NCBI GenBank assembly: GCA_043228905.1 | Contig: JBHGNT010000003.1 | Span: 13,268,001-13,332,000 of the forward strand | Length of the DNA: 64,000 bases | Direction of reading: 5' to 3' | Source: Azolla caroliniana | Taxonomy: Eukaryota > Plantae > Polypodiophyta | Shown: one piece after another, positions 27,575 through 64,000 of the stretch | Layout: each line of letters opens with the position of its first letter | How positions within the stretch are numbered: position 1 is the first letter of the stretch | Made by a program: the position numbers and the translations under genes | The notes under the pieces: model-generated | Seen by the model: the letters and a program-made list of their open reading frames with translations, nothing else | Told to the model about the DNA's origin: nothing | Databases searched by the model: none

Positions 27575-27621
<47 letters not shown>

Positions 27622-28290
27622 ACACATAGATACATTATACATACTCACATGCCATACATACAATATATACAACACATGCAATTCAATACATACATACATA
27701 TACACATGCCATACATACAATGCATATATACAATAATGCATTTAATACAATACGATACAATGCAATACATATATGTACATACATGCATACACACATCCAT
27801 ATGTAGACACAACACATACATATATATGCATGCAATACAATACATGTGCATATTGTATATAGAACACATGCTATACATACAATACATACTTAAGCACATG
27901 TATAGAACATAAACACACACACATAACACATACATACAACCATGCAATACAAAACATACATATATATGCACATATATAGGACATACACACAAGCACATAA
28001 CACATACCCTACATACTCACATGCCATACAATATGTACATACATACACACATGCCATGCATACTGATACAATATATACAATACAATATGTACATGCATAC
28101 ATACATACAATACATACATATATATACACATGCACATATATACAACATACACACATGCCATAAATATAATACATATATATGCAATTGTATAGAGCATACA
28201 CATACATACACACAAAGAACATACATACATATCCATATGCATAAACACACACACTTGTATAGAACATACATACATAGTACATACACAAGC
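26100..28290. repeat. Low-complexity (CATA/TACA/CA)n tract with an internal ~91-bp duplication and a (CA)n run
   Basis: Alternating purine-pyrimidine sequence, G-poor on plus strand; duplicated unit at ~27120-27300; (CA)n at ~27578-27619. Confidence 0.9.
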
Positions 28291-28480
28291 TATAACGCTC
28301 TTTTTAAAATGCTAATTGTTTTAAAAAATGGGGGAAGAAAGGGGGGGGAGATTACATATGCGTTGTGTTTTAGCAAAAAAAAATGGGGGGGGAAAAGAAG
28401 AAATTGAGAGAGAGAGAGAGTGTGTGTGTGAGAGAGAGAGATGCCATCCTTCCCATTTCCCTCCACACAAAAAGGAAGCT

Positions 28481-36900: not shown

Positions 36901-38083
36901 GGATTTCGTAGGCTCAGGTTGGTAGTGACCCCCTTTATTCGTCCCCAGCTGCCCTCCAGTAAGGGAGCCGCTACGAGCTTCACCTTCCGGTCCACAGTCT
37001 TGTATTTAGTGTCTACTTAGGCGATCCGATGCGCCCTGGTTCCTCTTTCGAAGTCTGCAATGACTTCATACATGTCGATCGAGTTGACCGGTATGACTTG
37101 GTCTTCGCTCAGACCTCCTTCGACTACCTTCTCGATTTCCCCCATGGTGTCATCGAACAAGACCGCCTCCACGGTTTCCCCAATTCCTTGGTCGTGGCTT
37201 AAGGCTCCGCACGCCTTCAAGCGTATCTTGGCCTATTTTCTTTCTCTACCGCTGATGCTGGCTATGGTACACCCTCCGTTGTTGGAGAACAAAACTTTCC
37301 TACCTATTTTACAGGTGTGGGGAGTTTCCCGGTTGTTCGGACTATCGTGGCCCCATGCCTTGATAGCCCTATCTAAAAATCCGGCTTATCATCACTTCCG
37401 AGGGTGTCCCAGTTTTGTTCGTGGTTCTTCCGAACGGTCAAAAATTGGACGGAGTGACGACCGTCCTGACTTTTTACCCTCGCATAGGCTGAACCATTGT
37501 CTAGCACTTTCGTCTCCATTCTAGCCGCCGTGATGTATGGTTCCCTGAGGATGACCAGGTGGGAGGACGTTTCTTGCACAAAAAAGTGTTGGTTTATGTC
37601 CACGTCTCCGATGCTCACCTTGACGTTCAGGCAGGTCCCGTGCAGCTCTTCCGTGGCTCTTGTTGCCACGCGTATTTTCCACCCGTGTTTGGTGTTGATC
37701 GGCCAATTTCCCTTTTTGTAGAAGTCCATGGACATTAGGTTAATTTCCGACCCGTGGTCGATTAATGCCACCACCGGTTCCTTGACATTCCCGATTCGAA
37801 CTGGGGTTTCTGTAGTAGCTCTTGCCCAGTGCGGCTTGGCATAGTGGCTTTCCACGAGCTCGTCTTCTGTGGAGATCTCGTTGAGGAGTGCCGCCCTCAC
37901 CTCAACCGGCTTCTCGGGCTCCAGTTCCGTCACGAGACGCTTTCTCTTCATGAGGTCCTCGATGTTGTCGTGGAACTCCCTTCTTGCTATACCGAGCACT
38001 TCCCTAACCGTGAGTTCTATGCGACTGTCGAGAACTCGCTCTTCTAGAACCTTTTGTAGGTTCGTTGTTTTCTCGATTTCCAT
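33953..38083 (-). pseudogene. Element G pol (protease, RT, RNase H, integrase), disrupted
   Basis: ALIDHGSEINLM; WFTVPKKNGTLRFIQDL; DLYSGYDQ; PFLDD; VDTSPTGIG; IETDC; YNPEANGKIE; WFGPYVV. Confidence 0.9.
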
Positions 38084-38540
38084 GCTTATGCGGAAGCTCG
38101 GAATCCTGCCCTTCTCCTTCTCCTAGGACCCGGTCGGAGTGACATTGTTCTTTTTGGGCGTGCTTTGGGTGTCATACCTCCCCGAAGGGCCCTCTCCCCT
38201 GGTTTTCCCCGCTCGTCTTTCGTCGATCAGGGCCTTGTAGTTCCCACACGCGGCTTCCACAAAGCCGGAGCTTTCTTCAACGGTGGAACGCTTCAACGGG
38301 GTCGTTCCACCCGGTAATTTCATGCACACGTTCTTCTGCACGCTCAGCTTCTCCCTTCTGCAACCTTCCTCCCGTCAAGGTCTCAAGAATAGCCGGCCAG
38401 AACCCAGGGTTTGAATCGGGTTTGGCCGCCTTTTCCCCTACTCGGATGCTGGCCGAAGCCGAATAGTGGATGGCTTCGACGTGCCGGGCCGCAGCCTCTT
38501 CATGCCACCTCCTCTGAAATTCGTGTCGAGCAGTCTTCGT

Positions 38541-38822
38541 TGTTACCCCGTACGAGATGTACGGAGAGTCAAGTGTGATGAGCGAGGGTTGAATGTGATC
38601 ATGATGTTGTTGTGTATGTGTAGGGGGCATAAATGTAATTGTGATCTATACGTATGTGAACACATGCACACGTGTGTGCATGTGGATGGATACGAGGAGG
38701 TGTGAGTGAGTGTCCAATATGAATGCTCGAGGGGGGTTACACCCCTATGTATCTACCCCCTCTTGTACTATTTAACCCCTTATGGGGAATGAATGAAACA
38801 TGAATGAACATTTCTGTCTTAA

Positions 38823-38868
<46 letters not shown>

Positions 38869-41152
38869 TCATCTCTCTTTCTCTCTCTCTCCCCCTTAAC
38901 GTTGAATCCCCTTGGGAGGGGGGTGGAGCCATTCTAGGCACCACCCCCCACCCCGCAATGCTTCTCAATGCACATGATCTCTCTTGCCATCAATCCCATA
39001 CCCTCCATCATCATCATAACCACCATGTCTATCTTTATCATGATTATCATCGTCCTTAACCCTAACCCTAAAACCGATAACACCTTTTGGCGACCACTAA
39101 GGCGACCCCCCTTTGGAGACGGAGTCCAAGAATGATACGTGGCGATGCAAGAAAAGTGACAAATGATGGTGATGATGTGCAGGAACTGACAATATGTACA
39201 AGTGAGTGAGAAATTGAAGATTGACAATGTATTCATCACAAAACGAGGAATCGATGAATTGACAAAGAAGTGTTAAGCATCTCTAATTCATGTTTAGTTA
39301 TAAGCAGAGACAAATATATCCTCTGATGTGTGTTAAAGTAGAGACAAAGTTGTCCATAGTTTACAAGTTAAAGCACAAATGTGTCTCCTCATTATCACCA
39401 TTTCAATCATCATCATCATATCCACCTAGATCATTCTTAACGAAGAGGGAGAAGATGATGATCATGATGAAGGCGAATATGAACATGAAATGCTATGTGG
39501 TTCGTGCAATTATGCTTCGTTGACAAAGACAGTGAAGGACGGAGAAATAAACGCACAACCAAATAGAGACGATTGAAGGGCCCGAAAGAAAGTGATGGCC
39601 GTACGGCCAAAAGGACCGAACAGAGCCGAAGACAAACACGGTTAGACACAACCGAACCGTGGCCAAAACGGAGGCCGGAAGAACGCTCAGATAGTGACGA
39701 TTGAACAGAGCGGCCACGCGACTGGAGGTTGGCCGGACAGGGCTGGCGACGACTAGAAAGGCGTCAGGAACGGTCACCACCAACTGACAACAGCCGGAGT
39801 GGAGCGGCCGGAGAGCGGTCAGAATGGCCAGATAATGGCTAAAGAGTAGCCGGAATGGTCGAACAACGGTTGAAGAGCAGCCGGGCAACAGTCGGAATGG
39901 TTGGAGTGGCCGGATAGTGGCTGAACAACAACCGAAGCAACCGGGCAAAGGAAAACAACAGTTGGACAAGAGACCAGACGAGAAGACACGGCGTCAGAGC
40001 GGCAACGGCCAGACCGGTGGCTAGAAAGGCCAGACCAATGGCGGGACAACAGACAATAGCGACAACCGGAACAGCCATGAACGATGGCCGAAACAACAAC
40101 AAAGACACTGCCAAACCATGGAGGTGACGCACACATGAAGGAAATAGGACATAACAGAGATAGAGGAAGAAAGATGAAGAAGAAAACAGGAAATGACATA
40201 GAGCAGAAGGATAGGAAGCAACAAAAATGGCGGTGGTAGAAGAAGAAGAAGACAGAAAGGAACGGAATAGAAAGATGAATTAGAAACAAGAGAAAGAAGA
40301 AGATAGAAGAGAAAATGAAGAGAAGAAAGCTAACGAATCGCAAAACGGCGGGAAGAAGAGAAAGATGCAGACAACGGCAAGAGAGAAACGTAAGAAGCAG
40401 AGAAGAAGAAAAAAGAAAGAAAAAAAAAAGAAAGGAAAAAAAAAGAAAGAAAAAAAAAAAGAAAGAAAAAAGGAAAACAATATGACCTAAATTAAAGCTA
40501 AAAATTGGAGGGGTATTAGACAAAAGGGTACATAATTAAATTTTTAAAAATCAAAGGGCACTGACAGAATTTTTTAAAAACTCATCAACCTAAATGATAT
40601 GGACACGATCCACACACAACTCACAAGATACAAAGAAGAACATACATATACACGACATGATTTTGGACCCATGACGAAGTTCGTAAGCCGACAGAACGAG
40701 AATGTTCGTGTCGCGGAAAGATTTGCTGACCGACAAAGATGTTCGAGTCAAGCACTCCGATCGAGGGAGTCGATCGTTGAAAGGACCGATAGAAGTCCCG
40801 GTCGAAGAAATATCATCATCAAGGCATGTGGGATCGATGTGCAAGGCACTCTCCCACGAGCGTGCCATATTGTGTTACCCCGTATGAGATGTACGGAGAG
40901 TCAAGTGTGATGAGCGAGGGTCGAATGTTATCATGATGTTGTTGTGTATGTGTAGGGGGCATAAATGTAATTGTGAATCTATACGTATGTGAACACATGC
41001 ACACGTGTGTGCATGTGGATGGATACGAGGAGGTGTGAGTGAGTGTCTATTATGAATGCTCGAGGGGGCTTACACCCCTATGTATCTACCCCCTCTTGTA
41101 CTATTTAATCCCTTATGGGGAATGAATGAAACATGAATGAATATTTCTCTCT

Positions 41153-41189
<37 letters not shown>

Positions 41190-41403
41190 TCATCTCTCTT
41201 TCTCTCTCTCTCCCCCTCAACGTTGAATCCCCTTGGGAGGGGGGTGGAGCTATTCTAGGCACCACCCCCCACCCCGCAATGCTTCTCAATGCACATGATC
41301 TCTCTCGCCATCAATCCCATACTCTCCATCATCATCATAACCACCATGTCTATCTTTATCATGATTATCATCGTCCTTAACCCTAACCCTAAAACCGATA
41401 ACA
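38541..41403 (+). mobile_element. Element H: non-coding, non-autonomous LTR element (TRIM/LARD-like), Arg-type PBS
   Basis: LTRs 38541-39082 and 40873-41403 (TGTTA...TAACA), highly similar; TSD TTCGT; TGGCGACCAC after the 5' LTR; 1.8-kb internal region with no recognisable domain. Confidence 0.88.
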
Positions 41404-42373
41404 TTCGTGTGTCACTCGCATGTACCCAGCTGTTCGAAAGGTAGACTACATTACTCCTGACTGCTTCTCTGAAGTCAGCGCATGCTCTCCAGGCATGTCC
41501 GGTGGCGTCACACCATACACACCTCTGATTGGTCGCCAGTCGCCAGTCGCGCGGCTAACCCTCATCACTTCGGCGGGCTTGGGTGATCTAGAGGTCGCGT
41601 ACCATCCTTGTTAATTCTTCTAGCCCTGCACCGCCCGCAGGTCCCGCGACTATGTTCGTCGGGGTTGGGCCTAGCTCGAGCCACCTCCTCGTTTCTTCCA
41701 TTCGGGTCGGCATCGGTTCGGCCCTAATTTCGACAGCCGGTCTGACGGACGAGGATCCCTTTTCTCTCCAGTCTCGGCGTTTGTCAATCCAGTTGCATAC
41801 TTCTTTGACAGTCGCCCAGTCAGTCGTTAGATCTCGACTGGTTTTCAGAAGAAGACCCACGCTTTCCCGGACGCGCGAATTGAAAGACATCACAAAAAAT
41901 AGGACTTTGCTTGTTTCAAGCACGGTTCGGTCCAATCTAGAGAGTCGCGCGAACCGTGGCTCGAACTCCTGGAGGAGCGCCGAAGCGTTTTGACCCTTGT
42001 CGGGGCTATTGACGCAGTTCATAAAATCCTTTCTTGATAGACGGAGTGAGTCATCATAGTTGTACCTCTCGAGAACTTCCTCTGCGAATTCCGCCCAATC
42101 GTGATAGCCTGCTTGTATCTCAACCATCTCTATATGGATGTGTGGGGTTACGACCCGGGGAAACCCTGCTAGCCGTCTATCTTCGCGTTTGTTCCTCATC
42201 TGCATTTCAGATTTGTAAGCCTCTAAGTATCTCATGGTGTCCTTTCTGCCGAACCAGCCTATCTTGCTGACTGTTGCTTCTATGGCCTGGTCGAGGGCAC
42301 TCGCGCCCTCGCCAACACTAACCAGGCAGTCTACCGCCACCGCCATTGCTTCTGCAAGTTTGCTTCCTCTCAT
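41404..42373 (-). pseudogene. Element G gag (N-terminal part; continues left of insertion H)
   Basis: 261-aa ORF homologous to the Gag of I, K and L (F.G..RYL..YK.EM, KVL.FV, LT.DWA.V). Confidence 0.8.
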
Positions 42374-45111
42374 CTCCAGATTCCTTTGCCGCCCTTTTTC
42401 ACGTGGGGTTCACCAACGATGTTGAGGTTATCCTCGCGGACACGTAGAAGTCGGGCAGGACCACGGGGGTCTCGAACCAAGGAATCGAGAAAACGAGGAG
42501 GGAGGAGTTTGAGAACCGCGTAGGTCTTGAGACTACGGGAAAATAGGTAACGCTAGCAAACGAGAGAGGGTAAGAGAGTCGTGCGAAGATGCAAACACGG
42601 ACAAGACACTGAGAACAACGTTTGTTAGGTAGAGAAGGCATCCCCAAGACAGTCGAAGGTAACCCCCTTTATAGCACAAGGAGTGACAGTTACAAGCATT
42701 CATGAAGCGTCGCTTTCCCTTCCTAGATTCTCTCCCCTGATTCGGTCCCTTCGTAACTCTCCCTACATATGCGATATCTATTTCTTCTTTAATGCCCTAA
42801 CTGCCTAATACCCCTCCGTATACTCATGCCTAGTACTTTCCCTATTTAATTCTCTCTAGGCGTGCATTCGCATAAACTGGTGTTCCTGCGCATTTCACCT
42901 TGCTTCTACCTATGGCCCGGAATCTTCACGAGACCGTTGTACCGCATTCTGGCCTCCCCGTAGGCCTACCTCTTCCTCCCTTCTGAATCGGTTATCCGGA
43001 AGTCCGCTCCGCCCGGTTCTCGTCCGGGTACGTCCGTCACTCTGCATTTCCGGGTCCCGTTCTCTTGCCGCCACCATCAATATCTTGGTCTTACGTCAGA
43101 TCTGATGCTGACCACCGAAGTCTCTAGCCCGGTGTGAGGTGACCCATAGGACCGGTCTTCGTTCCTTCGCTTCCCTAATCTTCTCTAGAACTCGTCGTCG
43201 ACCTCCTTGTTGTGCTCCCGCCTCCATCTTCCATCTGTCTAGGTCTCACGCTAGCTCTTGGGCCAACCGCCGGAGTCTCCGGATGAGATGTAGGGATACC
43301 GATTCTAAAATGACTCCCGACGACTTGTCTGAGGCCACCGACCCTTTTAGTGGTGTAGGTGGAAAGCATCCGCTCTATGATCGATCAAGCCCTGCTTGGG
43401 CTTGATTCTCCAATGTTCGGAGTTTCAGCACCGATGCAAATCCCCCCAGACTCGTTTCGTACCCTCGATCGTCTTCTTCCCGAATTCTGACCTTCGCCTT
43501 GGTCGATCTTTCTCCCCATGTAAAGAGGGTGGCTCGTTCCGCCTGCTCTTCTGTATCGGCACCTCTAAACCGAACCCAACCCTTGTCAATCGGGCTCTAC
43601 TTCCTCCCCTTTGTCTTCCGTGTCTCGGGACGGTTTCGGTCGAACGATCCACATCCGGATCATGCTCCATCCGAATTGGAATGCGGACCAGTTCGATCCT
43701 CAGTCGAGTCAACTTCCGATTCCGCTCCCTTCGGCGCCGCCTCTCATTTCCTCCTTCTCTTCAGTGGTTCTGTCCTTGACCTCCTCGTAGGCCGTTTCCC
43801 ATCCATCTTCGCTGGCATTGTGCCAGGAGTCCTCGTTGGCGCCTTCCATCTCTCTGGTCTTATGTCGACACACGGGCTCGACTACCGGAGTCTCCGGAAT
43901 CCGCGTGGAGGGTTCTTCTCCCCTCCTGACCTCCTTGTCAGACGGTCTTTCTACACAAGTTGAGAGGGCGTCTTGCTCCACACCCTCTCCCGTGGTATCA
44001 TTGTACCATTCTTCGGCCTCTGACTGGGCCATGTCCGCCTTGTTCGGAAGGCCGACTAGCTCTGAGTCTTCGGAATCCGTCCACATGTCGGATCTCTCTT
44101 CTTCGTCAACCATCATCTTCAGAGCCTCATATGCTTCTCGGACCAAGGCTTCGACATCGAGCTTCGCTGATCCTTCTTGTTGTGTGCCCACCTCCTGCGT
44201 GATGGCGCACTGTCGCACGTTATCTTCCCTTTACCTTTTGCAGACCGCTCCTCATCCAACCATCGGCAAACTCATTCAACTTTCGACCAATCCTCAGTGA
44301 GGCCATTCGCTCTGTCGTCATCTTCAAGCTTGATGCTGATTGCGTCCCATTCCACTCTGTCGATCGACCTAACGAACAATAGGACTTTGTCCACCCCCAC
44401 CAATCTTTTTTCCCGCTTTGGGAGCCGGGTAAAGCGCCGCTCTAACTCCTGGAACACCTTCGTTGCACCCTGGTGGGTCGTCACCAATGCAACGCACTGG
44501 TCGAAGTCGCATCGTGCCCGTCCTCCGTATGCCTATAGGAGCGCCTCTTCGAAGCCCTCCTCGGAACTATGTGCTTCTCAGAGCTCCTTTACTTCCGCGT
44601 GCATATGGACAACAACGACCCGACAGAAGAACTCCAGCCTCAACGCCTCGTCTATGCCACACACCTCCATTTCCGTGTTGTAGGCTTCCAAGTAGAATGG
44701 GCCTTTGTCCCCATTGAAATGACTGACTCTTTCGACCACTCGCTCAATAGCTTGTTGCGCGTCTTCTCGTCAATCTTTGCACTTTGGTTAAAAAAACAAA
44801 TGACCTGAAGGCCTTCATGATGATGAAAACCACTTCTTTTCTTCGGCCGGCTTCTTCCGCCTTTTTGTCCGCGGAAGCAGCGCATGGTGCTTCTCCGCCA
44901 GGCCGGCCGTTATGCTTTCGATTTGATCTCACTATGCCCGGATTTGCTTGTGCAAACTATAAGCATGGTAATTCCTTCATCGTCACTCGTCCGAACTCCA
45001 TTACCACTTTAGCCACAATTTCCCCGAAGTCTTCGTCTTCCAACTCCATGCTCCCTTGCCGCCCTTTCACATTGGGTTCACTAAAGATGTCGTCGAAATC
45101 CGGGGGTATGT

Positions 45112-45793: not shown

Positions 45794-46107
45794 ACGTGTC
45801 GGATCCGGGCGGGACCACCGGGGTCTTGGACCGGGGAGAGATGGGTTTCTAGAAGTTCTGGCTCTCTGGAGCCAGATATGCCATCGAGACACCAACCAGA
45901 GCAGTTCCGGATGCAACCTGGAGACAACCGATCCGGACGCGTCCCGGAATACAGCCAGAACGCATAGAGGGAGACCTCGTGCGTACACGCATACGCTGGC
46001 CCTTCTTAGCCGTGTTTATAGAAGGCTCGAAGGACTTAAGTATATATATTTATACGCATATTACTAAGTACGCGGACTATGGTCCGGTTCACCTTGCACA
46101 CATGCAC

Positions 46108-50254: not shown

Positions 50255-51661
50255 CTATTGAGTAGTGAAACTAAGTTATTGGCTTAATATTGTAAAATAC
50301 ATATCAATGGACATTTCTCCAAGAGGATTTCCTTGAGTTCCTTCCGCTTGAGCGAATGACATCAGGCAGTTATTTTGAGCCATTGAATGGTTATTTCTAG
50401 CAAAGAAATAGGATAAGCTTAGACAAATATTCATAACATCATGTTGTGATGTAAACATATCATGGGCAAACATTAATCGATATCATGATCTTAGGTCAAT
50501 ACCCCTCTAGACGTATGAGATGAGGTTGAAGATAATGGAAACACAAAGGTGTTTCACAAACACCGTGGAGGTGACAAATTAATGTCTTTCCCTTATCTCT
50601 ATATCGATTTTTTCATGGCGGATCCCCGAGGCTCAACAACCATGTATGTTTGCGTCATGAATAGTTTATACATGAAATTTTTTTAACAATAAACTATGTT
50701 TGGGTGCCCACATATGTGGTTTCGGCTCTTTAAGTCCTATTACGAGGACCTCGAAGTGCACTTAGACCTCAAGTCTAAACGTGTGTTATAGTCATATGTA
50801 TCAACGATGTTGTATGGTCTTGGTCATATTTGAACTCGAGACCTCGAGAACAAATGCATTAAACACTTGAGCCAACCAAGTAGGTTGCTTTCTTGAATGT
50901 TTAATATTTAATGCGTATAAAAGATATGCGAGGCATTTGCCCATATATGTGTTTTTAAAAGAAACATATATGTCAAGAGTCCTTATTTCCCCCTCGTTTA
51001 GCTCAAACTTTGTTAGTACGTTACCTAACCTCAAGTCTCATAATTACGATGGCATACGCCAAAGTGCAACCTAATGGTCAAGCCAAATGACCCCTCTCTT
51101 CGTACTAGGCCCACATGGCCCATCACATGGTTACGTCATTACGAATGTCTTTCGTAAGAAGGATCTCATGGTGGCATCGTATCCATGTAATGAGGGAGGG
51201 ATGTTGGATATGGGTGTCATAGGAGTGACCTCACATGAAGTGGGTTAAGCCCTATGTACTCAACACCATTGTGGCTATGATTGTTTCATTACATAACGAA
51301 ATATCGAAGTGACCAACGGGGATGTCAACGAAAAATTGTTGAAAAAGGGATGGTGAAAACGCCATTCTCAAAAAAATGTGAGGGCGTCCACCAAGATCCT
51401 TTCCCCGAAAAGGAAAACATTCGATTTAAAATCACGTAATAACTTATATACGCATATGTATATTATCACATATATACGATCAACAACGTATACACGTGAC
51501 CACATATGCCTATATTAACAAATCATTATATTTAATAGCCAAAAATGACGTAATCGAGATACGTTGTCGTAGTGTATTTCGTACACTATGTGAAAAACTT
51601 ATAAAGTACCCGATTTAATAAATATGAAGAAAACGAAAAAAATGTGAGAATACATGTTACA

Positions 51662-51733
51662 TGCATAGGGCAAGATTGGAACCTTGTACCTCCATGTTAA
51701 TAATATGAAGGCTTACCATTACACTAACACATC
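51662..51733 (-). promoter_or_regulatory. tRNA-like Pol III A-box/B-box module in K 5' LTR
   Basis: A box TAGTGTAATGG (51726-51716), B box GGTTCCAATCT (51683-51673), T7 run downstream. Confidence 0.55.
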
Positions 51734-53013
51734 ATGAGTGTTAAAGAAATAGATATCCCACATAGAAAGGTTATTTCACGCATATTTTCTAGGAAAAAAG
51801 CTTTAGTTACAAGAAAAACGCATGATAGAAAAAAGCTACACATGCACATTTAACATGCATGAACACTATAGTTGATAAAAACGCATGAGGTTAGAAAAAG
51901 CATTATCACTTTTAGAAAAAGCATGTTAGAGAAAGCATATAGTTTATAGATAGAGAAAGCATGGACTCAATAATTAAAGAAAGCATGGATTGTTAAGACT
52001 CTCTCATCATTATATAAGGATGGGGAGCACAATTTAATAGGAGTGTGAAAACTTTGGAAATTGGATATATTTCTAAGAACACCAATTAATAAATAATATT
52101 CGTGGGATTCACGAAATAAACTATACTCGTGGGATTCACGAAACAAACTATAGTCCTAGGATTCACGACGTATTTATATCTCTTTCTTATAATCTACTCA
52201 GAAGTACATTAGCCTCAAATTCTTCCTCCTCCTAGTCCAAAACCCCAGTGGTTCCCACCCGACTCACGCAATGATTTGGCGCCGAAAGGCACGACACAAG
52301 TGGTGAACCCGATGTGAAGACGGGTGGCAAGGAGATGGAGAATCAACAAGAGGCGATGAGTACGATGATGATGATGTTCGAGCGGATGCTACAAGAACAA
52401 CGAGCCATGTTGGAGATCATGGTGGCAGTAAAGCGGCTCCTACAACGAAACAGACAATTCAACGGTGTCGTGCCTTTCGGCTCCGGATCGTTGCGTGAGT
52501 CGGGTGGGAACCACCGGGGTTTTGGACTAGGAGAAAGAAAAATAGAAATAAGGCTAGTATAGAATAGGTATAAAGAGTTATAAGATAAGAATCTCGTGAA
52601 TCCCACGAGTTTAGTATATTTAGTCAATATTTAGGTAGTAAGAGAGAATTATTTTAGCAAATTCGTGAATCCCACGAATATTTTAGATTGATTGATCATT
52701 ATAGAAAAATAATCAACAAAAACTACAATGTGCTCCCCATCCTTATATAGTGATGGGAGAGACTAAGCATAGCTACATGCTTTTTTCTAATATGTTCATG
52801 CACACTAAATGTGCATGTGATGCTTTTCTAATCCTTGCTTTTATTTGCTAAATATAGTGCTCATGCACGCTAGATGTGAATGAGTCACTTTTTAGTTGCT
52901 TGCGTTTTTCTATAAAATATTCACGCACTCTAAAAATGCATGATTTACCTTTTAATAAAGGTAGGCGCAAATAAAGCACTTATAGTTATTAAATCTATTT
53001 GTAGATCACTAAA

Positions 53014-53085
53014 GATAAGGTAGCATAATGGTAAAGTTGAGGTTTGGCTACGTGGAGGTACAAGGTTCAAATCTTGCCCTATGCA
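53014..53085 (+). promoter_or_regulatory. tRNA-like Pol III A-box/B-box module in L 3' LTR
   Basis: A box TAGCATAATGG (53021), B box GGTTCAAATCT (53064), tRNA-like spacing. Confidence 0.62.
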
Positions 53086-53175
53086 CGTGATAAATATCTT
53101 GATATTCTTATTTTATTTATTGGTGATAAATATCTTGATATTCTTATTTTATTTATTTATATGTAATTAAATCGG

Positions 53176-55263
53176 TTATATTATTTTTACTTTTTCACGT
53201 AGTGTACGAAATACACTACGACACTCGCCCCCTCCGAACCCGCACATCCTCCGGTATTTGCCGAAGTTGCCGATGCTCGTTGTCTCCCCTTCATCCTCCG
53301 TTTGTCCCGCTATGTCAACTTTGTCTCTCCATTTTGAGTAGACCCATTCTTTCCACCCGAACCATTGTCGCCATCCGATCCACCATATTCTTTGTTCATT
53401 CGTGGTAGTGTCTTTTACTGGGCTCTTTCTTGTCTTCATCAACCTTGACTTTTTTCCGGATCGCTCTCGTCCGATCAACTTTCGGTTTGATCGGCTTCCG
53501 ATCGGATTCGTATTCGGCCGAATCGGAATCGGTTGTTTGGTTTCGATTGAGTCGGTCTCCTTCCGACCCGGTTTCGATCTATCGGTTTCGGTTTCGGTTG
53601 GCTTTCTTTTCCTCGTTTTCACCAGCCTCGACTGGTCCAACCTCCGATTGAGTCGAATTAGCTTCTTTCCGGATCGGTCTCGTCCGATCGGCTTTCTTTT
53701 CCTTGTTTTCACCAGCCTCGACCGGTCCAACCTCCGATTGAGTCGGATTAGCTTCTTTCCGGATCGGTCTCCTTCGATCGGCTTTCGGCTAGGTCGGCTT
53801 CCATCCATATTCGCGTTCGGCCAAGTCAGACTCGGTCGATCGGTTTTGACCGAGTCGACCCCTTTTCGGGTCGGCTTTCTTTCGGGTCGTCTTTCGGCCG
53901 AATCCTCATTCGCCCGGTTCGGCTTTCGTTTGTATCGTCTTTCGGCCGAATTCTCTTCCTTTCGGTTCGGCTTTCTTTCGGATCGGAATCCCGTCCGGAT
54001 CACCTTCCATCCTAATTGGCTTCCGACTTTACCTTTCTTGCCGCCACCTCCCGTCTCTCCGGTCTCACGTTGCTTCTCAGACACAACCGCCGAAGTCTCT
54101 AGAATTAGTGGGTAGGAATCCTCGGTATTATCATCCTCCATTGTTTCACCCATAGCCATATTCTCGGCTATCTCTCCGTCGTATGCATCGACTTCGACCT
54201 TTGTTTTCTCTCCGCCACCTTCCGTCTCTTCGGTCTCACGTTGCCTTTCAAACGCAACCGCCGCAGTCTCTGGAATCAGTGGTGGGGAAGTCTCGATATG
54301 GCCATCCGTCGTTGATTCGTCCATAGCCACCTTCAATTCGATGTCATCTTTCGTGGTGACCTCCTCAATCAAGTCCTCCTTGCTCTCTTTCACTGCATCA
54401 ATTATGCAAACATCAATTATGCTTACCCCTTTTTCACCCGATGTTTCGGACACTTGTATTCCGAAATCTTCTTCTACACTTGGGTTATCGGCCTTATCCT
54501 TCGTCGTTGTTCTTTCGCAAGACAAGAGGGTAGCTTGTTTTACACCCTCTTTCGTCGCACCATCATGTTGTATTTCGGCCTTCATATCGGCTCCATCGTT
54601 TGTCTTCAATCGACCATCCTTCATCGGCCATGTCGTTGACAAGATTCTCATCTTCCTCTCATCATGTCTCCGGCATACCCTTTGGACTTCGGCCCAATCT
54701 TCAGTAAGACCATTCGTACCTTCATCGTCTTCGAGTTCAATCCCGATGTCCTTCCTTTCTTTCCGATCAATCGATCTTATGAACATTAGGACTTTATCCT
54801 CCCCCACCAATCGTTGTTCCCGCTCCGAGAGTTGAGCAAGATGATGCTCGAACTCTAGGAATGCTTGTGTTGCACTTTGGTGGGTCTTCTCCGATGCCAC
54901 CCATTCATCAAACTCTCGCCGATCTTGTCCCTTTGATCTCTTGTAATCATATGCCTCTCGTAAAGCTTCTTCGAATGATCCCCATGTCGAGTTTTGTTGC
55001 CGTATCTTGTGGATTCTCTCTTGTAGCTCATCCGTGGCCACCCGATTGAAGGATGTCACTTGCAATCCTTCCGGTATCCCACATCGTGTCATCTCCGCCT
55101 TGTAGTCACGTAGATAGCGTGACACATCGTTTCCGTTGAATTGTCCGTTTCGTTGTACGAGCCGTTGTACTACTGTCGTGATCTCCGACATCTCGCGTTG
55201 TTCTTGTAGCATTCTCTCGAACATCATCATCATCATGTTCATCGCCTCTTGTTGATTCTCCAT
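53176..55263 (-). CDS. Gag-like protein with acidic middle and Arg/Lys-rich repetitive C-terminus, 695 aa from first ATG
   Basis: Intact ORF filling the whole internal region and ending in the 3' LTR; N-terminus homologous to element G Gag; no protease, RT or integrase motifs. Confidence 0.85.
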   Translation of the reverse strand: MENQQEAMNMMMMMFERMLQEQREMSEITTVVQRLVQRNGQFNGNDVSRYLRDYKAEMTRCGIPEGLQVTSFNRVATDELQERIHKIRQQNSTWGSFEEALREAYDYKRSKGQDRREFDEWVASEKTHQSATQAFLEFEHHLAQLSEREQRLVGEDKVLMFIRSIDRKERKDIGIELEDDEGTNGLTEDWAEVQRVCRRHDERKMRILSTTWPMKDGRLKTNDGADMKAEIQHDGATKEGVKQATLLSCERTTTKDKADNPSVEEDFGIQVSETSGEKGVSIIDVCIIDAVKESKEDLIEEVTTKDDIELKVAMDESTTDGHIETSPPLIPETAAVAFERQRETEETEGGGEKTKVEVDAYDGEIAENMAMGETMEDDNTEDSYPLILETSAVVSEKQRETGETGGGGKKGKVGSQLGWKVIRTGFRSERKPNRKEENSAERRYKRKPNRANEDSAERRPERKPTRKGVDSVKTDRPSLTWPNANMDGSRPSRKPIEGDRSGKKLIRLNRRLDRSRLVKTRKRKPIGRDRSGKKLIRLNRRLDQSRLVKTRKRKPTETETDRSKPGRKETDSIETKQPIPIRPNTNPIGSRSNRKLIGRERSGKKSRLMKTRKSPVKDTTTNEQRIWWIGWRQWFGWKEWVYSKWRDKVDIAGQTEDEGETTSIGNFGKYRRMCGFGGGECRSVFRTLREKVKII

Positions 55264-55279
55264 CTCCTTGTCACCCGCC

Positions 55280-55297
55280 TTCACGTCGGGTTCACCA
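55280..55297 (-). promoter_or_regulatory. Primer-binding site complementary to tRNA-Trp 3' end
   Basis: Plus strand TTCACGTCGGGTTCACCA matches the plant tRNA-Trp 3' end as recalled; adjacent to the LTR. Confidence 0.8.
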
Positions 55298-55849
55298 ACT
55301 GTGTCGTGCCTTTCGGCTCCGGATCGTTGCGTGAGTCGGGTGGGAACCACCGGGGTTTTGGACTAGGAGAAAGAAAAATAGAAATAAGGCTAGTATAGAA
55401 TAGGTATAAAGAGTTATAAGATAAGAATCTCGTGAATCCCACGAGTTTAGTATATTTAGTCAATATTTAGGTAGTAAGAGAGAATTATTTTAGCAAATTC
55501 GTGAATCCCACGAATATTTTAGATTGATTGATCATTATAGAAAAATAATCAACAAAAACTACAATGTGCTCCCCATCCTTATATAGTGATGGGAGAGACT
55601 AAGCATAGCTACATGCTTTTTTCTAATATGTTCATGCACACTAAATGTGCATGTGATGCTTTTCTAATCCTTGCTTTTATTTGCTAAATATAGTGCTCAT
55701 GCACGCTAGATGTGAATGAGTCACTTTTTAGTTGCTTGCGTTTTTCTATAAAATATTCACGCACTCTAAAAATGCATGATTTACCTTTTAATAAAGGTAG
55801 GCGCAAATAAAGCACTTATAGTTATTAAATCTATTTGTAGATCACTAAA

Positions 55850-55921
55850 GATAAGGTAGCATAATGGTAAAGTTGAGGTTTGGCTACGTGGAGGTACAAG
55901 GTTCAAATCTTGCCCTATGCA
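55850..55921 (+). promoter_or_regulatory. tRNA-like Pol III A-box/B-box module in L 5' LTR
   Basis: Same as 53014-53085; A box at 55857, B box at 55900. Confidence 0.62.
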
Positions 55922-58026
55922 CGTGATAAATATCTTGATATTCTTATTTTATTTATTGGTGATAAATATCTTGATATTCTTATTTTATTTATTTATATGT
56001 AATTAAATCGGTTATATTATTTTTACTTTTTCACGTAGTGTACGAAATACACTACGACAACGGAAACGATGTGTCACGCTATCTATGTGACTACAAGGCG
56101 GAAATGATGCGATGTGCGATACTGGAAGGATTGCAAGTGATATCCTTCAGTTGGGTGGCCATGGATGAGCTACAAGAGAGAATCCATGAGATACGACAAC
56201 AAAACCCAACATTGGGGTCCTTTGAAGAAGCTTTATGAGAGGCATATGACTATAAGAGACCGAAGGGACGAGCTCGACGCGAGTTTGACCTGTGGGTGGC
56301 ATCGGCGAAGATCCACCAAAGCACGACACAAGCATTCCTAGAGTTCGAGTATCATTTTGCTCAACTCTCAGAGCAAGATCAAAGATTGGTATGGGAGGAT
56401 AAAGTCCTAATGTTCGTAAGATCAATTGATCAGAAAGAAAGGATGGACATCGGGATCGAACTCGAAGATGATGACGGTGCAAATGGTCTTACCGAGGATT
56501 GGGCTGAAGTCGAAAGAGTATGCCAAAGATATGGTAAGAGGAAGACGAGAATATTGTCGGCAACAACATGGCTTATAAGGGATGATCAATTAAGGATGAA
56601 TGATGTGGTTGATATGAAGGCCGAAGTACAATTCAACGATACCACAAGAGAGGGTGTGGAACAAGGCATCCTCTTGTTTTGCAAAAGAATGATGACCAAT
56701 GATAAGGACGATGACTTGAGAGTGGTGAATGCTACTTTAAGGGTGGAAGAAAGTTTCGGGATACAAGTGTCCAAAACATCGATTGAGAAAGGGGTAAGCA
56801 TAATCGATGCTTGCATGATCGAGGGAGATAAATAGTGTGAGGCAGTCATGATTGAGGAAGTAGCCACGAAAGATGACATCGAATCAGAGGTGGCTATGGA
56901 CGAGTCAATGGCGGATGACCGTATCGAGACTTTCCCACCACCAATTCCAGAGATTTTGGCGGTTGCGTTCGAAAGGCAATGTGAGACCGAAGAGACGGAA
57001 GGTGGCGGAGAGAAAACGAAGGTCGAAGCTGATGCATACGATGGAGAGATAGCCAAGAAGGTGGCAATGGGTGAAATGACAGAGGACGATAATACCGAGG
57101 ATTCTTGCCCACTAATTCTAGAGACTTCGGCGGTTGTGTTCGAGAACCAACGTAAGATCGGAGAGATGGGACATGGTGACAAGGAAGGCAAAGTCGGAAG
57201 CTGGTTCGGATGGAAGATGATCCGTATGAAATTCCGATCTAAACGAAAGCCGAACCAAGTGGGTGTGGATTTGGTCAAAATTCGATCGGTCGAGCCCGAC
57301 CTGGACGGAAATTGTTCCAACCGGAAGCCGATCGGACGAGACCGATACAGACAAAATTTAATCCGACTCAACCAAGGGTCAAACCGGTCAAGGTTAGTGA
57401 ACATAAGGAAAAGGAGGCCAACCCAAACCAAGACCAATCGGTCGAACCCGAACCGAAAGGGGCCGACTCAGTCAAAACTGATTAAACGAGTCTGATTCGG
57501 CCGAACGCGAATACGGATGGAAGCCGACCTAGCTGAAAACCAATCAGACGAGACCGATCCAGAAAGAAGATAATCTGACTCAACCGAAGGTCGAAGCAAT
57601 CGAGGCCGGTGAATACGAGGAAGCTGCCAACCAGGCACACTACCATAGACGACAAGGGCCAAGTGGATTTGAAGGATGTTACCGAGGATGAGATCTCAAA
57701 GAAGGAGGGCTTTAACATAAAGATTGTCAACTCTAATGCGAGATTGTACGGCGAAGGTGGATGAAGTGCGGAGTGTCTTGACCAAGGAGATAGTCGGAAC
57801 GAAGGTGGCACAAGCACGAGACATGAAGGGTTAAGCTCAAAAAGAGCACAAGGAGTCATGACAACCTGTCATGGCCATGCAAAGAATGAACGAAGAATAT
57901 GGTGGATCAGATAGCAACAATGGTTTAGGTGGAAAGACTGGATGTGCTCAAAATGGAGAGACAAAGTCGACATAGCGAGAGAAATAGAGAGTATTACAAA
58001 TGGAGAATAACGAGCTCCAACAATTT

Positions 58027-61000
58027 TGTTGAGAGACAAGCTCAACATTTGTGCGTAATACGATGCGTAACTAGTGCGTAGACTGGGTGCATAAAACTGG
58101 TACGCAGACCGGTGCGTAGAAAGGCTGTATCGGTGCGTAGACCGAAAGGCCGTTGGAAAGATATTCCTCGTAAGGAATAATTTTGGGAGTAAGTGTCGAG
58201 GCTCATTTATGAGCAGTCAAGTACTCTCAGTACTTGTGTCAGCCCACTATCAGGGCTTGTATAAAAGTGCTCACTGAGCACATCCTATGTACAGATTGAG
58301 TATTATTTTCGAATTTAAGTTCTTGTGTTACTCTCTCTCTGTGTCTCCCGTGCGTACTATGCAAACCTAAGCTTTCCATTAAACCTGCGTTTTCTATTGT
58401 TTGGTTTTCCTATATTGCTTCCGCACGCCATTCTTTTCATGGTATCAGAGCGCGAGGGTTGAGAACTTCTGTAGCTGACTTTGCTTGAAGGAAAAACCAA
58501 CAAAGAAGAACAAGAAAACTGATGGACAGAGGAATGGCTAGCTCGCTTCCAACGGAGAAGCTCGACAGAACCAACTACGCATCTTGGTCCTACAAGATGC
58601 ACCAGTACCTGCTCGGACATGGTTACTGGAGCTATGTCGATGGAGCAAATGACACAACACCTGATTCGACACACAAAGACTTCCCAGCGTGGGAACAATC
58701 GGCGAGCTGAGTGCTATACTGCTTCGCGTCTTGTGTGGGTGAACAGCTGCTAAGCTACGCTCGGGATGCAAAAATGCCGAAGGGTGCATGGGAAAATCTG
58801 AAGAAGATTTTCGCCGCAAGCACCACAGCCAGGAAGCTTAAGCTTCGACTGGAGTTGAACAACCTACGACAACGCGATTTGTCGGTGGTTGACTATACCT
58901 CGAGGATTAAGGACATATGCGACTCCTTAGCCTCCATCGATGTGAACATCGAGGAAAGCGAGATGATCCAGGTCTGTCTCGGGGGTTTGGCGTTGAAGTT
59001 CGGGGTGTTCCGAACTGCAATGTGTACGCAAGAGAATATGTCGTCCTTTTTCGACTTATAGTCGATGCTCCTGGTAGAGGAGAACCACGCGGGTGCGTCG
59101 ACGAGTACGCACACCAACAACAAGATGTTGTACATGGAGGGAGAAAGGCCCCGTGGTCGTGGCGGACGAGGCGAGTCGGTACGCAATGGAGGCGGCCGAC
59201 GGGATCAAGGAAGAAGGCACCGAAGTGATGCCGACAGCAATTCCGGACCCTCCGGAAACAGGGGGAGTCGAGGCGACGAGAACCAGAAAGGGAAATCCGC
59301 CACAGAATGCTGGTACTGTGGCAAGAAACGCCACAGGGAGAGCGAGTGCTGGAAGAAGCGCGCCGAGTCGGAGAGGTCTGATTCTGGACATACCGACAAA
59401 GGAAATCGGCAGCGATCGCACTATGTCGAAGGATCTGGAAAAGCCGGAAAAGGGTCAGTCTTCATGACGAGACACGAAGCAAACTCAATGAAGCAGTTCA
59501 CGCCGAAATCAGACGAGGTGTGGTATGTCGACTCCGGCGCGTCAAACCACATGACGTGCCACAAGGAGTGGTTCTCATACCTTGAGAAACCGACGCAACC
59601 AAGAGTAGTCGCAACTGGAGACGACACTCCGCATCCGATCGCGAATGTCGGTGAAGTTCCCTTGAGCCATGTCGGGCAGAAAGGGAAACTTATGAATGTG
59701 TTACACGTCCCGACCATCACGAAGAATCTGGTGTCGGTCGGGCAAATCGTCGACCAGGGATGCAGGTTCGGTTTACGCATCTTAGGTGCTTCATTGAGGA
59801 AGAGGGCCGTATTATTGCGCAAGGCCGCATAGATGGGAGGATGTTTATCCTCGACTCTACTAACGGTGGCACCGCAATGTTTGCGAAGGGACAAAAAGTC
59901 GAGTTGGACATCGACTTATGGCACAAACGGATAGGCCACGTCAATTACCAGCGGCGTCAAGACCTGCAATCGAAACAAGTGGTGTTTGGATTGCCCAAAT
60001 TTAGTGGCCGGAAGGCACAAATTTGTGAAGCCTGCCAGCTTGGGAAGCAACACCGACTTCCTTTCCCAAACGAGCGTAATCAGAGCCGGAACAAGCTAGA
60101 CTTGATACACTCTGATGTGTGGGGGCCAGCACAAAACATTAGTCTTGGCGGGAGCCGATATTTTGTCTCCTTCATCGATGACTACACGCGGCATACGTGG
60201 ATCTACCTCATTGAGAGGAAAAGCGAAGTCTTCGACTGTTTCCGAGACCTCAAAGGGTTCGTGGAAACGGAAACAGGAAGAAAGATCAAGTGCCTGCGGT
60301 CGGATGGCGGAAAAGAATACTTTTCCGGTCAATTCAACGGTTATCTACAACAGATGGGAATTCAGCGCGAATTCAGTTGTAGATACACGCCAGAGCAAAA
60401 CGGCGTGGCCGAGAGAAAAAATCGGTCAGTTGTGGAAGTTGCACGCGCAATGCTGGAGGAGAAGAGCTTGCCCAAGTTCTATTGGGCCGACGCGGTAAGA
60501 ACCGCGGTATACATCCAGAACCGGATTGGAGAAAAAGTGTCGGCGCACGAGCTATACTTTGGAACAAAGCCGAACTTGCGACACTTATGAGTTTTCGGTA
60601 GCATTGCGTATGTACATGTGCCGAAGGAGAAAAGGAGGAAGTTGAACGCAAAAGCCGAAAAGTGTATCTTGGTCGGCTATTCGGACGAGCAAAAGGGTTA
60701 TAAGTGCTATAACCCGCGCACCAAACAACCGCATGTGAGCCGCGACGTTGTGTTTGATGAGTCTGCATCCTGGTACTTGCCTCCGACTCCGGATCTCACC
60801 TCCAATCCGAATTCTGACGATGAGGACAACGAGGCTGAGGTGCCTCCGGCTGAGCCTGAAATCGGGACCCCCAAAGAGAGTCCGATTTCGTTTCGGTTAA
60901 GTGGACCGAATGGACGACTGAGTCGGTACGACCAGTCTGATGAAGAGCCGGCGAGTAGTGGAGACTCGGTCGTGCATTCCCCACGCAGGAAGCCGAGGAG

Positions 61001-63742
61001 ACGGCTTACGCGCGAAGAGAAAGGGAAGCAGAAGGTGTCGGATTCCGGCACGGATAGGAACGAGTCAGACCGACGCGAGTCCGACTTCGAGGGAAGTGGT
61101 GACGGGCCTTCAGGAACGAAGTCCGCATTGGCCGAGAAGACCTCGACATCGGCAAATGACCGATTACACCGATCTACCCGCCAAAAGAACCCAGTTGTGT
61201 GGTTTGGATACAACGAGTACATGGCGCATCACTATGCGTACATGACCCGTGTAGCGGAAGTGCGCGAGCCGGGGAGCTACGCAGAAGTGGCGAAGGACGC
61301 GAATTGGCGCGCTGCGATGGAGGAAGAGATGCACGCATTGGCGGAAAACGAGACCTGGGATCTGGTTGACGCACCGAAGCGTGTGAAGCCGATCGGATGT
61401 AGGTGGGTGTAGAAGGTCAAGTACAACACCGACGGCTCGGTCAACCGATACAAGGCCTAGTTAGTGGCAAAAGGCTACGCTCAGAAACATGGCATCGACT
61501 ACGATGAGACGTTCGCGCCGGTCGCAAAGATGAGGACCGTCCGTGTTTTGCTCGCAGTAGCCGCGGCCAAGGGGTGGCACCTACATCAGATGGATGTAAA
61601 GAATGCATTCCTACAAGGTGAGCTTGAGGACCAAGTGTACATGGTACAGCCCCCCGGATTTCACTCCGGAATGAACACGTTGGCAGTATGCCGATTGAAG
61701 AAGTCCCTTTACGGACTGAAGCAAGCCCCGAGTGCTTGGAATGCGAAAATCACGCATTGGCTGCGTCGGATGGGCTTCGCGACATCAAAATCGGACTCCT
61801 CGTTGTTCATTCGGGAAGGTCGACTCGGGCCGATCAGTATTTTACTCTATGTTGATGACTTGGTCATCACCGGCGCCGACCTAGGTGAGATCAACCGCGT
61901 GAAGCTCTAGCTTGTGGCATCATTCGACATGAAGGATCTGGGGGACCTTCATTACTTCCTTGGGATCGAAGTGATCCGCACCCCCGAAGGCATACTAATC
62001 AGCCAATGTCATTACGCGCTGAATATGCTCTTCAAATTCGGGATGGCAAACTGTAAGTCCATCTCGACTCCTCTGGACAGAACTGTCAAGCTTCGCCCCA
62101 ATTCCGGCAAGGTTTGCGATTTGACAAGGTTCCGAGAAGTTGTCGGAAGCCTTATCTATTTGACCATCACCCGACCCGATCTCAGTTATCTGGTCGGGGT
62201 GATCAGTCAATTCATGGCGCAACCTACCGAGGAGCACCTTCAGTGTGCGCAACACGTACTGCGGTACGTAAGCGGCACTAAGGACCGCGGACTGCTATAT
62301 CAGACCGATATAGCCCCGCAGTTGGTCGACTACACTGATGCTGACTAGGCCGGCAATGTCGCTGATCACTGATCCACGTCCGGACATGCATTCTCTCTTG
62401 GGAGTGCCGCGATAGCGTGGAGTAGCAAGAAGCAGCCGACAATTGCACTGTCGAGCACCGAAGCCGAGTATAGAGCAGCGGCTGTCGCAACATGCGACGC
62501 CATATGGTTGAAGCGGCTACTTAAGGATTTGCAAGTCGAGGTGTCCGATCCAACAACGATCTACTGCGACAACCTCAGCAGCATCCAACTCGCGAAGAAC
62601 CCCGTCTTCCACGCACGAACCAAGCACATTCAGGTGCACTACCATTTTGTCCGTGAGCGTGTCCTTTCTGGTGAAGTCAAACTTCAATATGTTCCGACGG
62701 ATCGGCAGACCGCCGACATCTTCACCAAGCCTCTTGGTCTGGACAAGTTGAGGCATTTTTTGGGTGCGCTTGGGTTGCGTCACCTCGACGTGCCAAACTT
62801 GAGGGGGAGCAACGTCCCAGATGACCACGAAAGGGAGTAGGAAAGGAGTGGAAAAGACCTCGGATCGGCTGAAGAAGTCGAGAGCGGATCCGCGGAAGAG
62901 TCCGAAAGCGGACACAAGGGGAGCAGCCGAAAGAAAGAGCCAAAGCCAACCAGGCATGGGGGAGATGACGCCGTCAAGGGCGAGAAGACCGGAGACGAGT
63001 TGGAGACAGCCAACTCGGATGAGAGCAACTCGGAAGAGAGCTCGGACGAGAGCGAAAACCGATCGGAGGTAGCTGAGTCGGTTCGGATGTTTGATTCAGA
63101 TACACTAAATCAACTGAGGGCCAAGCGGAAAAGAAGGCAGTAGGAGAAGCGCCAACACTGCGACAACAAGGGACCTGTGAAGGGCCATAGGAGTAGACAA
63201 GCCTACCAGAAGGGTCGAAGCGCTCGGAGTCGAACATGCCGAGGAGCGCGAGCGAGGCGTGGAGCTAGGAGAAGCCGGAGCGTAGGTCCGACAGAGTAGG
63301 CGGAACCTCAAGTTGAGCTTGAGGGGGAGTGTTGAGAGACAAGCTCAACATTTGTGCATAATACGATGCGTAACTAGTGCATAGACTGGGTGCATAAAAC
63401 CGATACGCAGACCGGTGAGTAGAAAGGCCGTATCGGTGCGTAGACCGAAAGGCCGTTGGAAAGATATTCCTCGTAAGGAATAATTTTGGGAGTAAGTGTC
63501 GAGGCTCATTTATGAGCAGTCAAGTACTCTCAGTACTTGTGTCAGCCCACTGTCAGGGCTTGTATAAAAGTGCTCACTGAGCACATCCTATGTACAGATT
63601 GAGTATTATTTTCGAATTTAAGTTCTTGTGTTACTCTCTCTCTGTCTCTCCCGTGCGTACTGTGCAAACCTAAGCTTTCCATTAAACCTGCGTTTTCTGT
63701 TGTTCGGTTTTCCTATATTGCTTCCGCACGCCATTCTTTTCA
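58027..63742 (+). mobile_element. Element C: full-length Ty1/copia retrotransposon, 5716 bp
   Basis: 413-bp LTRs 58027-58439 and 63330-63742 (about 11 substitutions by eye); TSD AATTT; PBS TGGTATCAGAGC at 58440; PPT GAGGGGGAG. Confidence 0.96.
58522..62840 (+). pseudogene. Element C gag-pol polyprotein (gag, CCHC, protease, integrase, RT, RNase H) with several stops and a frameshift
   Basis: CWYCGKKRHRESEC; WYVDSGASNHM; HSDVWGP; LRSDGGKEY; QNGVAERKNR; QMDVKNAFL; LLYVDD; HARTKHI; ADIFTKPL. Confidence 0.93.
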
Positions 63743-63883
63743 AATTTCGGCACATACCGGAGGATGTGCGGGTTCGGAGGGGGCGAGTGTCGTAGTGTAT
63801 TTCATACACTACGTGAAAAACATATAAAGTACCCGATTTAATAAATATGAAGAAAACAAAAAAAGAAGAGAATACATGTTATA

Positions 63884-63955
63884 TGCATAGGGCAAGATTG
63901 GAACCTTGTACCTCCATGTTAATAATTTGAAGGCTTACCATTACACTAACACATC
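63884..63955 (-). promoter_or_regulatory. tRNA-like Pol III A-box/B-box module in K 3' LTR
   Basis: A box 63948-63938, B box 63905-63895. Confidence 0.55.
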
Positions 63956-64000
63956 ATGAGTGTTAAAGAAGTAAGATATCCCACATAGAAAGGTTATTTC

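Follow-up and report, generated by a model that had tools for sequence, protein, structure and literature searches.

A tRNA-type A/B-box module kept in the LTRs of Phygy-type and chromoviral retrotransposons of Azolla caroliniana: a candidate TFIIIC site beside the element's own promoter

In their long terminal repeats (LTRs), two nested Gag-only retrotransposons, K and L, in a 64,000-nt stretch of the Azolla caroliniana genome (GCA_043228905.1, contig JBHGNT010000003.1, positions 13,268,001 to 13,332,000; hereafter the window) contain an A box and a B box arranged as in a tRNA gene, that is, as in a type-2 promoter of RNA polymerase III (Pol III). Judged from the sequences compared here, this module is real, selected and lineage-wide: its boxes and their spacing are preserved far above the spacer and the flanks, and it recurs in autonomous elements of two Gypsy lineages. 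With about even confidence, we propose that it is a tRNA-type promoter set in the U3 (unique 3') region of the LTR, which would bind TFIIIC, whether or not Pol III is fully assembled there, and thereby keep the element's TATA promoter open in chromatin dense in transposable elements (TEs).

The initial annotation of the window placed an antisense A/B-box pair ~110-200 nt from the 5' end of every K and L LTR. Indeed, both boxes occur antisense to the element in 4/4 LTRs, with 43 nt from start to start in all four, and the module spans nt 110-162 (K) or 151-203 (L) from the LTR 5' end:

53021..53031, plus strand: A box in the 3' LTR of L, antisense to L
53064..53073, plus strand: B box in the 3' LTR of L, starting 43 nt from the A-box start
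53056-53059, plus strand: conserved AGGT before the B box in the 3' LTR of L, at tRNA positions 44-47
55857..55909, plus strand: module in the 5' LTR of L (A box 55857-55867, B box 55900-55909), antisense to L
51674..51726, minus strand: module in the 5' LTR of K (A box 51726-51716, B box 51683-51674), antisense to K
63896..63948, minus strand: module in the 3' LTR of K (A box 63948-63938, B box 63905-63896), antisense to K

A relaxed A+B pattern retrieved exactly these four modules from the window, against a mean of 0.07 and a maximum of 2 in 200 block shuffles. The module agrees with the A-box consensus of type-2 Pol III promoters and with the B-box consensus (GGTTCGANTCC, PMC3395662), the K copies in the window having C at position 57; this C at a purine position, seen in the B box of the K 5' LTR, is a variant confined to the K insertion (2/26 K-like LTRs). 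In K and L the boxes and their spacing are as first described, but between the two the contrast with the surrounding sequence is weak, since 19/32 spacer nucleotides, 20/30 upstream and 21/30 downstream are also identical. T runs do follow the module, the first T4 lying +37 nt (L) or +31 nt (K) past the B box, although this distance is not conserved among relatives. The CCTTCAT/ATGGAGG pairing formerly taken as the vestige of an anticodon stem is complete in the K 5' LTR only, draws on the AGG of the variable loop and has no counterpart in L; it is therefore no anticodon arm. ARAGORN called no tRNA across the whole window, and no Rfam tRNA match was found at E<=10 between positions 46000 and 64000. 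These negative calls, together with the loss of the cloverleaf detailed below, lead us to reject a functional tRNA gene.

Genome-wide, one strict module pattern yielded 2,295 matches in 523 Mb vs 0 in the control, and two pattern variants yielded 1,684 vs 1 (a set that takes in true tRNA genes) and 2,019 vs 0; the strict and variant sets overlap in part. LTRs were also sampled blind to the module, either from the junction of LTR and primer-binding site (PBS; the first 100 of 2,393 matches supplied 83 LTRs, with 7 duplicates removed) or from the junction of polypurine tract (PPT) and LTR (30 of 145), and a module was scored as present if antisense, with <=2 mismatches and an allowed spacing of 35-54 nt. 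By this call, 72/113 LTRs bore an antisense module vs 0/180 shuffles, namely 29/36 in family K/L, 14/21 in A, 5/6 in B, 23/30 in T, 1/7 among other LTRs and 0/13 in C. Box spacing was 43 or 44 nt in 71 of the 72 module-bearing LTRs; in host tRNA-like sequences it was 42-45 nt in 28/30. Families A, B and D, together with part of K/L, are autonomous carriers, with internal regions of 5.6-5.8 kb encoding reverse transcriptase (RT), RNase H and integrase and ~7-8 kb overall, and the Gag-only K and L have their LTRs in common with the autonomous K/L-type family. The module is thus not the trait of a Gag-only family that it had seemed, as autonomous gag-pol elements from two Gypsy lineages have it too. 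It lies in U3, with a TATA box 100-290 nt downstream of it.

The first of these lineages, K/L and relatives, matches Phygy-type Gypsy in target-site duplication (TSD), PBS and domain order, our own trees being built from own-genome sequences. A 4-bp NCGN TSD and a tRNA-Trp PBS mark this clade (Neumann et al. 2019, PMC6317226). Here, an NCGN target was found at 153/198 Phygy outer flanks, exact 4-bp flank matches at 7/15 putative solo LTRs (5-bp matches at 0/15), and the Pfam domain order RT, RNase H, integrase, with no Chromo, in the autonomous relatives, whose coding region takes up the internal part and whose 7.3-7.9 kb lie at or slightly below the published 7.7-10 kb (PMC6317226). Phygy families are only ~60-65% identical in Pol, and within them, in trees with outgroups, RT implies one gain of the module plus a loss in family C, and integrase one gain. 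The second lineage is represented by family T, a chromovirus with a Chromo domain that is distant from Phygy in both RT and integrase trees; further chromovirus families also bear the module. Marks of Tcn1-type chromoviruses were evident as a Chromo domain in 5/6 frames scanned, a gag/pol overlap (locus L448) and a 5-bp TSD (locus L446). The chromovirus PBS corresponds to no tRNA type and imperfectly matches sequence 35-40 nt after the TATA box in 2/3 loci. A metagenome scan returned 111 loci, many very near the families of this genome and most with LTRs that are not complete; families L315, L338 and L343 are additions from it, but it does not establish a broad range of hosts. In 1.38 Mb of own-genome DNA biased to these LTRs, 228 of 288 box pairs matched the LTR set, 53 fell at ARAGORN tRNA calls and 7 elsewhere. 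Separately, loci L389:1345-1830 and L420:1410-1851 share a repeat of ~490 bp, 85% identical between them, that contains an A/B-box pair and is unmatched to the LTR families examined; it may be a short interspersed element (SINE) or an unplaced LTR.

A comparison of the boxes with neighbouring sequence across family LTRs, as the initial annotation had proposed, revealed boxes and spacing to be far better kept than spacer and flanks. Across 73 modules of four families (one flank tRNA removed), between-family identity in the A box was 0.72, in the four bases after it 0.81 and in the B box 0.84, the box values being inflated by anchoring the alignment on the boxes. The AGGT and the spacing lie outside that selection, and AGGT reached 0.91-1.00 per column. 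Identity dropped to 0.29 in the anticodon region, 0.23 just ahead of the B box (four bases) and 0.32-0.38 in the flanks. In an alignment of 8 K/L-type LTRs, the B-box window topped the 75 printed ten-base windows at 0.93, with 0.88 at the LTR 5' end and 0.81 in the TATA region. Conservation near that of the boxes is also seen in two other motifs of the K/L LTRs, one rich in TGCATG and preceding the TATA box (~340-360 in L numbering), the other a repeated GTGGGATTCAC that follows it (~540-560). The tRNA fold has gone: modules form 9.4-11.0 of 21 cloverleaf pairs, as against 9.1 in shuffles and 21 in the host tRNA-Trp, and no donor tRNA was identifiable, the best identity to a true host tRNA being 41 of ~71. 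The critical B-box C was present in both LTRs of 34/40 module pairs. A master lineage in K carrying a C-to-T change in the B box was considered and found no support, as the change is scattered on the tree, with 8 changes and 189/500 shuffles as low.

Retention of both boxes at tRNA spacing, rather than of the B box alone, would also suit a Pol III gene with a useful short RNA, be it an antisense regulator, a decoy or a microRNA (miRNA)-like precursor comparable with the Pol III genes in foamy-virus U3, for which simian foamy virus (SFV) sets a precedent (PMC3993851). The T runs of K (+31) and L (+37) fit such a gene, as does the long hairpin of one chromovirus family (z -2.8 to -6.1 in 3/5 subfamilies). 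We nevertheless judge this alternative rather unlikely. The initial annotation had envisaged a defined antisense RNA of 90-110 nt, an expectation at odds with the first T4 run, which across 20 modules follows the B box at distances from +1 to +467 nt. These 20 modules have no shared fold, only 5 of them folding better than z -2 and in ways unlike each other. Moreover, in chromoviruses 11-32 nt separate the end of the B box from that of the LTR, and an RNA would therefore often enter variable flank; sense and antisense versions coexist; and the would-be transcribed middle is not conserved. At loci L187, L191 and L196 of one chromovirus family, the spacer is predicted to pair with the B-box region, giving a long hairpin right where U3 begins, with z down to -6.1.

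Antisense orientation and U3 position are equally what would be expected if the module, on the element RNA, paired with the D, variable and T loops of the primer tRNA and so bridged the two ends of that RNA to serve minus-strand priming or transfer, after the manner of the bipartite PBS of Ty3, where U3 binds the primer at its T and D arms (PMC5371799). A comparable case is reported for HIV-1 U3-R. The host primer tRNA-Trp also has the 43-nt spacing and the AATGGTA and AGGT motifs. However, tRNA-Trp never came first in duplex energy or identity for 15 modules, ranking 2-10 in an incomplete panel (9 types of host tRNA and one false call), and positions 48-51, available for pairing under this model, lack conservation (0.12-0.36). 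Chromoviruses that may be self-priming bear the module, and families with sense modules only are incapable of such pairing. B-box positions 60-61 are kept at 1.00 and 0.96; they are needed by a TFIIIC site and not by primer pairing, which favours the former. Bridging is in our view improbable, and it is disfavoured along with a functional antisense RNA.

Natural variants reveal how freely the module can be rearranged. The autonomous Phygy family D has two tandem antisense modules per LTR, 136 bp apart, in which the boxes are kept and 11/20 variable spacer bases are in common (loci L408, L409 and L413; G000:C1:17174000-17183400 and others); ARAGORN miscalls one family D copy (locus L412) as tRNA-Ser(tga). 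Family B carries a second module, in sense orientation, in 5/6 LTRs, with 43-nt spacing and ~330 nt from the LTR 3' end (loci L149, L217, L227, L246 and L259). In family G, whose loci were found by similarity to the region that contains the module, a sense module occurs in 24/25 loci examined of 41 matches, at a distance of ~100 nt both from the LTR end and from the TATA box that it precedes, with T4-T5 runs within 45 nt; these elements have Phygy ends, a PPT and a tRNA-Trp PBS. The variable spacer of family G resembles K/L spacers and those of no other family (0/200 shuffles as good), which suggests that its sense module represents a tolerated inversion. Some family G loci (L444:1239-1454, L451; L456-L480) feature ~1-kb LTRs, in places an internal region of <= ~215 bp between PBS and PPT, and tandem arrangements, and might be a Phygy-derived element resembling a terminal-repeat retrotransposon in miniature (TRIM). 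Family H, a single-contig family from the metagenome (locus L315) and absent from this genome when searched for, is sister to K/L in the integrase tree (100/100) and harbors a different, sense module at the same LTR place as that of K/L. The tally by family is one tandem pair (D), one with both orientations (B), two sense only (G and H) and one with none (C).

From kept boxes and spacing, free orientation, tolerated duplication and the lack of a conserved product, we infer a DNA site for TFIIIC by the Pol II promoter. Under this favoured reading TFIIIC would bind the module, the benefit would be a barrier or a nucleosome-free zone adjoining the Pol II promoter, and any short Pol III RNA would be a by-product. 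Selection would act on replicating element lineages and not on the host, and the decay of old K copies likewise argues for selection on those lineages rather than on resting copies. It is likely, from these sequence patterns, that plant retrotransposons of two lineages recruit the host tRNA-gene machinery to hold their own promoter open. Among the possibilities raised initially, shielding of the LTR promoter appears to fit best. A fission-yeast barrier formed by tRNA-gene DNA (tDNA) depends on its A box and on Pol III, whichever way it is oriented (PMC2040200), and TFIIIC binding requires the B-box C (PMC3395662). We put forward more tentatively, and with less than even confidence, a wider version of the favoured reading, in which autonomous elements of two Gypsy lineages would each have taken over a pared-down tRNA gene as a portable TFIIIC/Pol III chromatin barrier, one that acts in either orientation, protects the Pol II promoter in heterochromatic nests and seeds thousands of TFIIIC sites genome-wide.

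Several observations weigh against the favoured reading. Family C, which lacks the module, nonetheless retains copies whose LTRs reach 97% identity, and the module is therefore dispensable for transposition. G-to-A changes affect both boxes in a young autonomous subfamily of K/L, whose LTRs reach 100% identity, and the C-to-T B-box change occupies both LTRs of 4/40 pairs. In old copies of K-like LTRs the B-box CpG is mostly gone, with TG in 14/26, and most copies in the genome are probably inactive given this loss. The distance from module to TATA box varies between 114 and 284 nt in antisense families, and a literature search for tRNA genes acting as barriers in plants found none. The absence from family C, the degenerate boxes of the young subfamily and the CpG decay of old copies suit a further alternative, in which the module is the inert relic of a once-captured tRNA or SINE, or a set of other factors' sites that resemble A and B boxes. 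A single gain would account for the Phygy distribution, and "not a few" LTRs contain tRNA-like pieces according to Kojima (PMC10886601). This alternative is unlikely, in that the survivors are only the tRNA-invariant positions and the exact spacing, with identity between and around them at chance, and a like pattern appears in the separate chromovirus lineage and in both tandem copies of family D.

The elements that bear the four modules are laid out in the window as follows:

52462..56063, minus strand: L, whole insertion, with a 4-bp ACGG target duplication, seated in the gag of K
52466..53223, minus strand: 3' LTR of L, 758 bp, TG...CA, TATA box at ~52743-52749
55302..56059, minus strand: 5' LTR of L, 758 bp, TATA box at ~55579-55585, 271 nt downstream of the module
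55280..55297, minus strand: PBS of L, 18/18 complementary to the 3' end of host tRNA-Trp
53224..53236, minus strand: PPT of L
53176..55263, minus strand: open reading frame (ORF) of L, 695 aa, with a Gag-like N-terminus and a low-complexity tail, no pol
51565..52296, plus strand: 5' LTR of K, 732 bp, TATA at 52011, ACGT target duplication
52301-52318, plus strand: PBS of K, tRNA-Trp type with 1 mismatch
63788..64000, plus strand: 3' LTR of K, first part (733 bp in full, extending beyond the window end), 94.8% identity to the 5' LTR

The two LTRs of the 3.6-kb L show 0 differences. Its 695-aa ORF had no Pfam match, scored 0.94 against retrotransposon Gag clusters in the Atlas, and is 33% identical over 163 aa (E 1e-30) to the Gag of an autonomous relative; it runs across the PPT and stops 48 nt into the 3' LTR (53176-53223). 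Such heavy nesting within the window could be explained if the module were a Pol III-type landing site for integrase. Ty3 targets Pol III start sites. This possibility we regard as very improbable, given that an A/B-box pair lies within 250 nt in only 6/198 Phygy outer flanks, as compared with the NCGN target in 153 of them, and that L inserted in the gag of K, away from any module. Also nested in K (58027-63742) is a Copia element with 413-bp LTRs (97% identical) devoid of the module and a TGGTATCAGAGC-type PBS. A further Phygy element occupies 33130-42931 on the minus strand; its RT is 66% identical to that of family B, it groups with the module-less family C, and it houses at 38541-41403 an element with ~540-bp LTRs. 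Long, degenerate TA/CA-rich tandem repeats extend over 26100-28300. Elsewhere in the genome, matches to tRNA-Trp (83 genome-wide), the primer of this abundant lineage, and to tRNA-Lys/Asn form tandem arrays at G000:C8:17.79-17.83 Mb, C16:4.99-5.11 Mb, C5:10.10-10.13 Mb and C5:17.99 Mb.

Pol III boxes in LTRs have been described in tiny non-autonomous TRIMs, in which they are thought to stand in for the Pol II promoter. Here they occur beside a TATA promoter, in full gag-pol elements and in either orientation, outlasting the tRNA fold. If bound by TFIIIC, the module would make these retrotransposons carriers of their own insulator or anti-silencing device, a counter-defence that we did not find described for plant elements. 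One genome would then allow a direct test of tDNA-type barriers in plants with natural controls, that is, families with none, one, two, sense or both-orientation modules. For annotation, such modules can inflate tRNA and SINE counts in genomes of this kind.

The dependence of yeast tDNA barriers on A and B boxes and their indifference to orientation fit the way in which the module is conserved (PMC2040200, PMC3395662); those barriers and ETC sites are, however, fixed host loci with tested function, ETC sites having a B box only, whereas the module, a putative TFIIIC site, is mobile with a retrotransposon. The miRNA cassettes of simian foamy virus are likewise A/B-box Pol III units in the U3 of an autonomous retroelement and dispensable in some settings, but have conserved stem-loops and terminators and yield miRNAs (PMC3993851), while neither fold nor terminator is conserved here. 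As in the Ty3 bipartite PBS, tRNA-complementary sequence lies in U3, without the primer-tRNA specificity and with sense-only families in the present case (PMC5371799). The elements themselves resemble described Phygy in the 4-bp NCGN TSD and tRNA-Trp PBS, and Tcn1 in the chromodomain, overlapping gag/pol and possibly self-priming; the available sections of that description mention no Pol III module (PMC6317226), nor does the available part of PMC7466625 mention tRNA or Pol III. A literature search, outside subscription papers and Repbase entries, found no such module described in Phygy, Tcn1 or other autonomous plant LTRs.

Cassandra, the analogue first suggested, turned out to be the more distant one. 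Cassandra and Ajax TRIMs do carry a captured Pol III promoter in the LTR, but with 5S type-1 boxes, in non-autonomous elements whose RNA is made by Pol III (PMC10886601), unlike the type-2 boxes by a Pol II TATA promoter reported here. Helenus/TRIMp3 (Kojima 2024, PMC10886601) is closer, with tRNA-derived rather than 5S boxes: A and B boxes are present in both LTRs and conserved with tRNA function lost, PBS and PPT are retained, and tRNA scanners can miscall the module, as happened with family D. Helenus elements are nonetheless non-coding and 311-1263 bp long, as against 3.6 kb with a 695-aa ORF in L and ~7-8 kb in autonomous carriers, and in the supplement entries available their boxes are in sense orientation and proposed as the element's own promoter, whereas ours are mostly antisense and upstream of the TATA box (PMC10886601). 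The only plant family of Helenus comes, in the available text, from Selaginella, and sharing with autonomous partners, which is what we observe with gag-pol elements, was deemed unlikely for TRIMp3; among LTRs with tRNA-like pieces, that study, as far as its available text goes, analyses TRIMs only (PMC10886601). In its workings the module resembles the captured Pol III promoters of TRIMp3, in elements that size, coding capacity and orientation keep outside Helenus.
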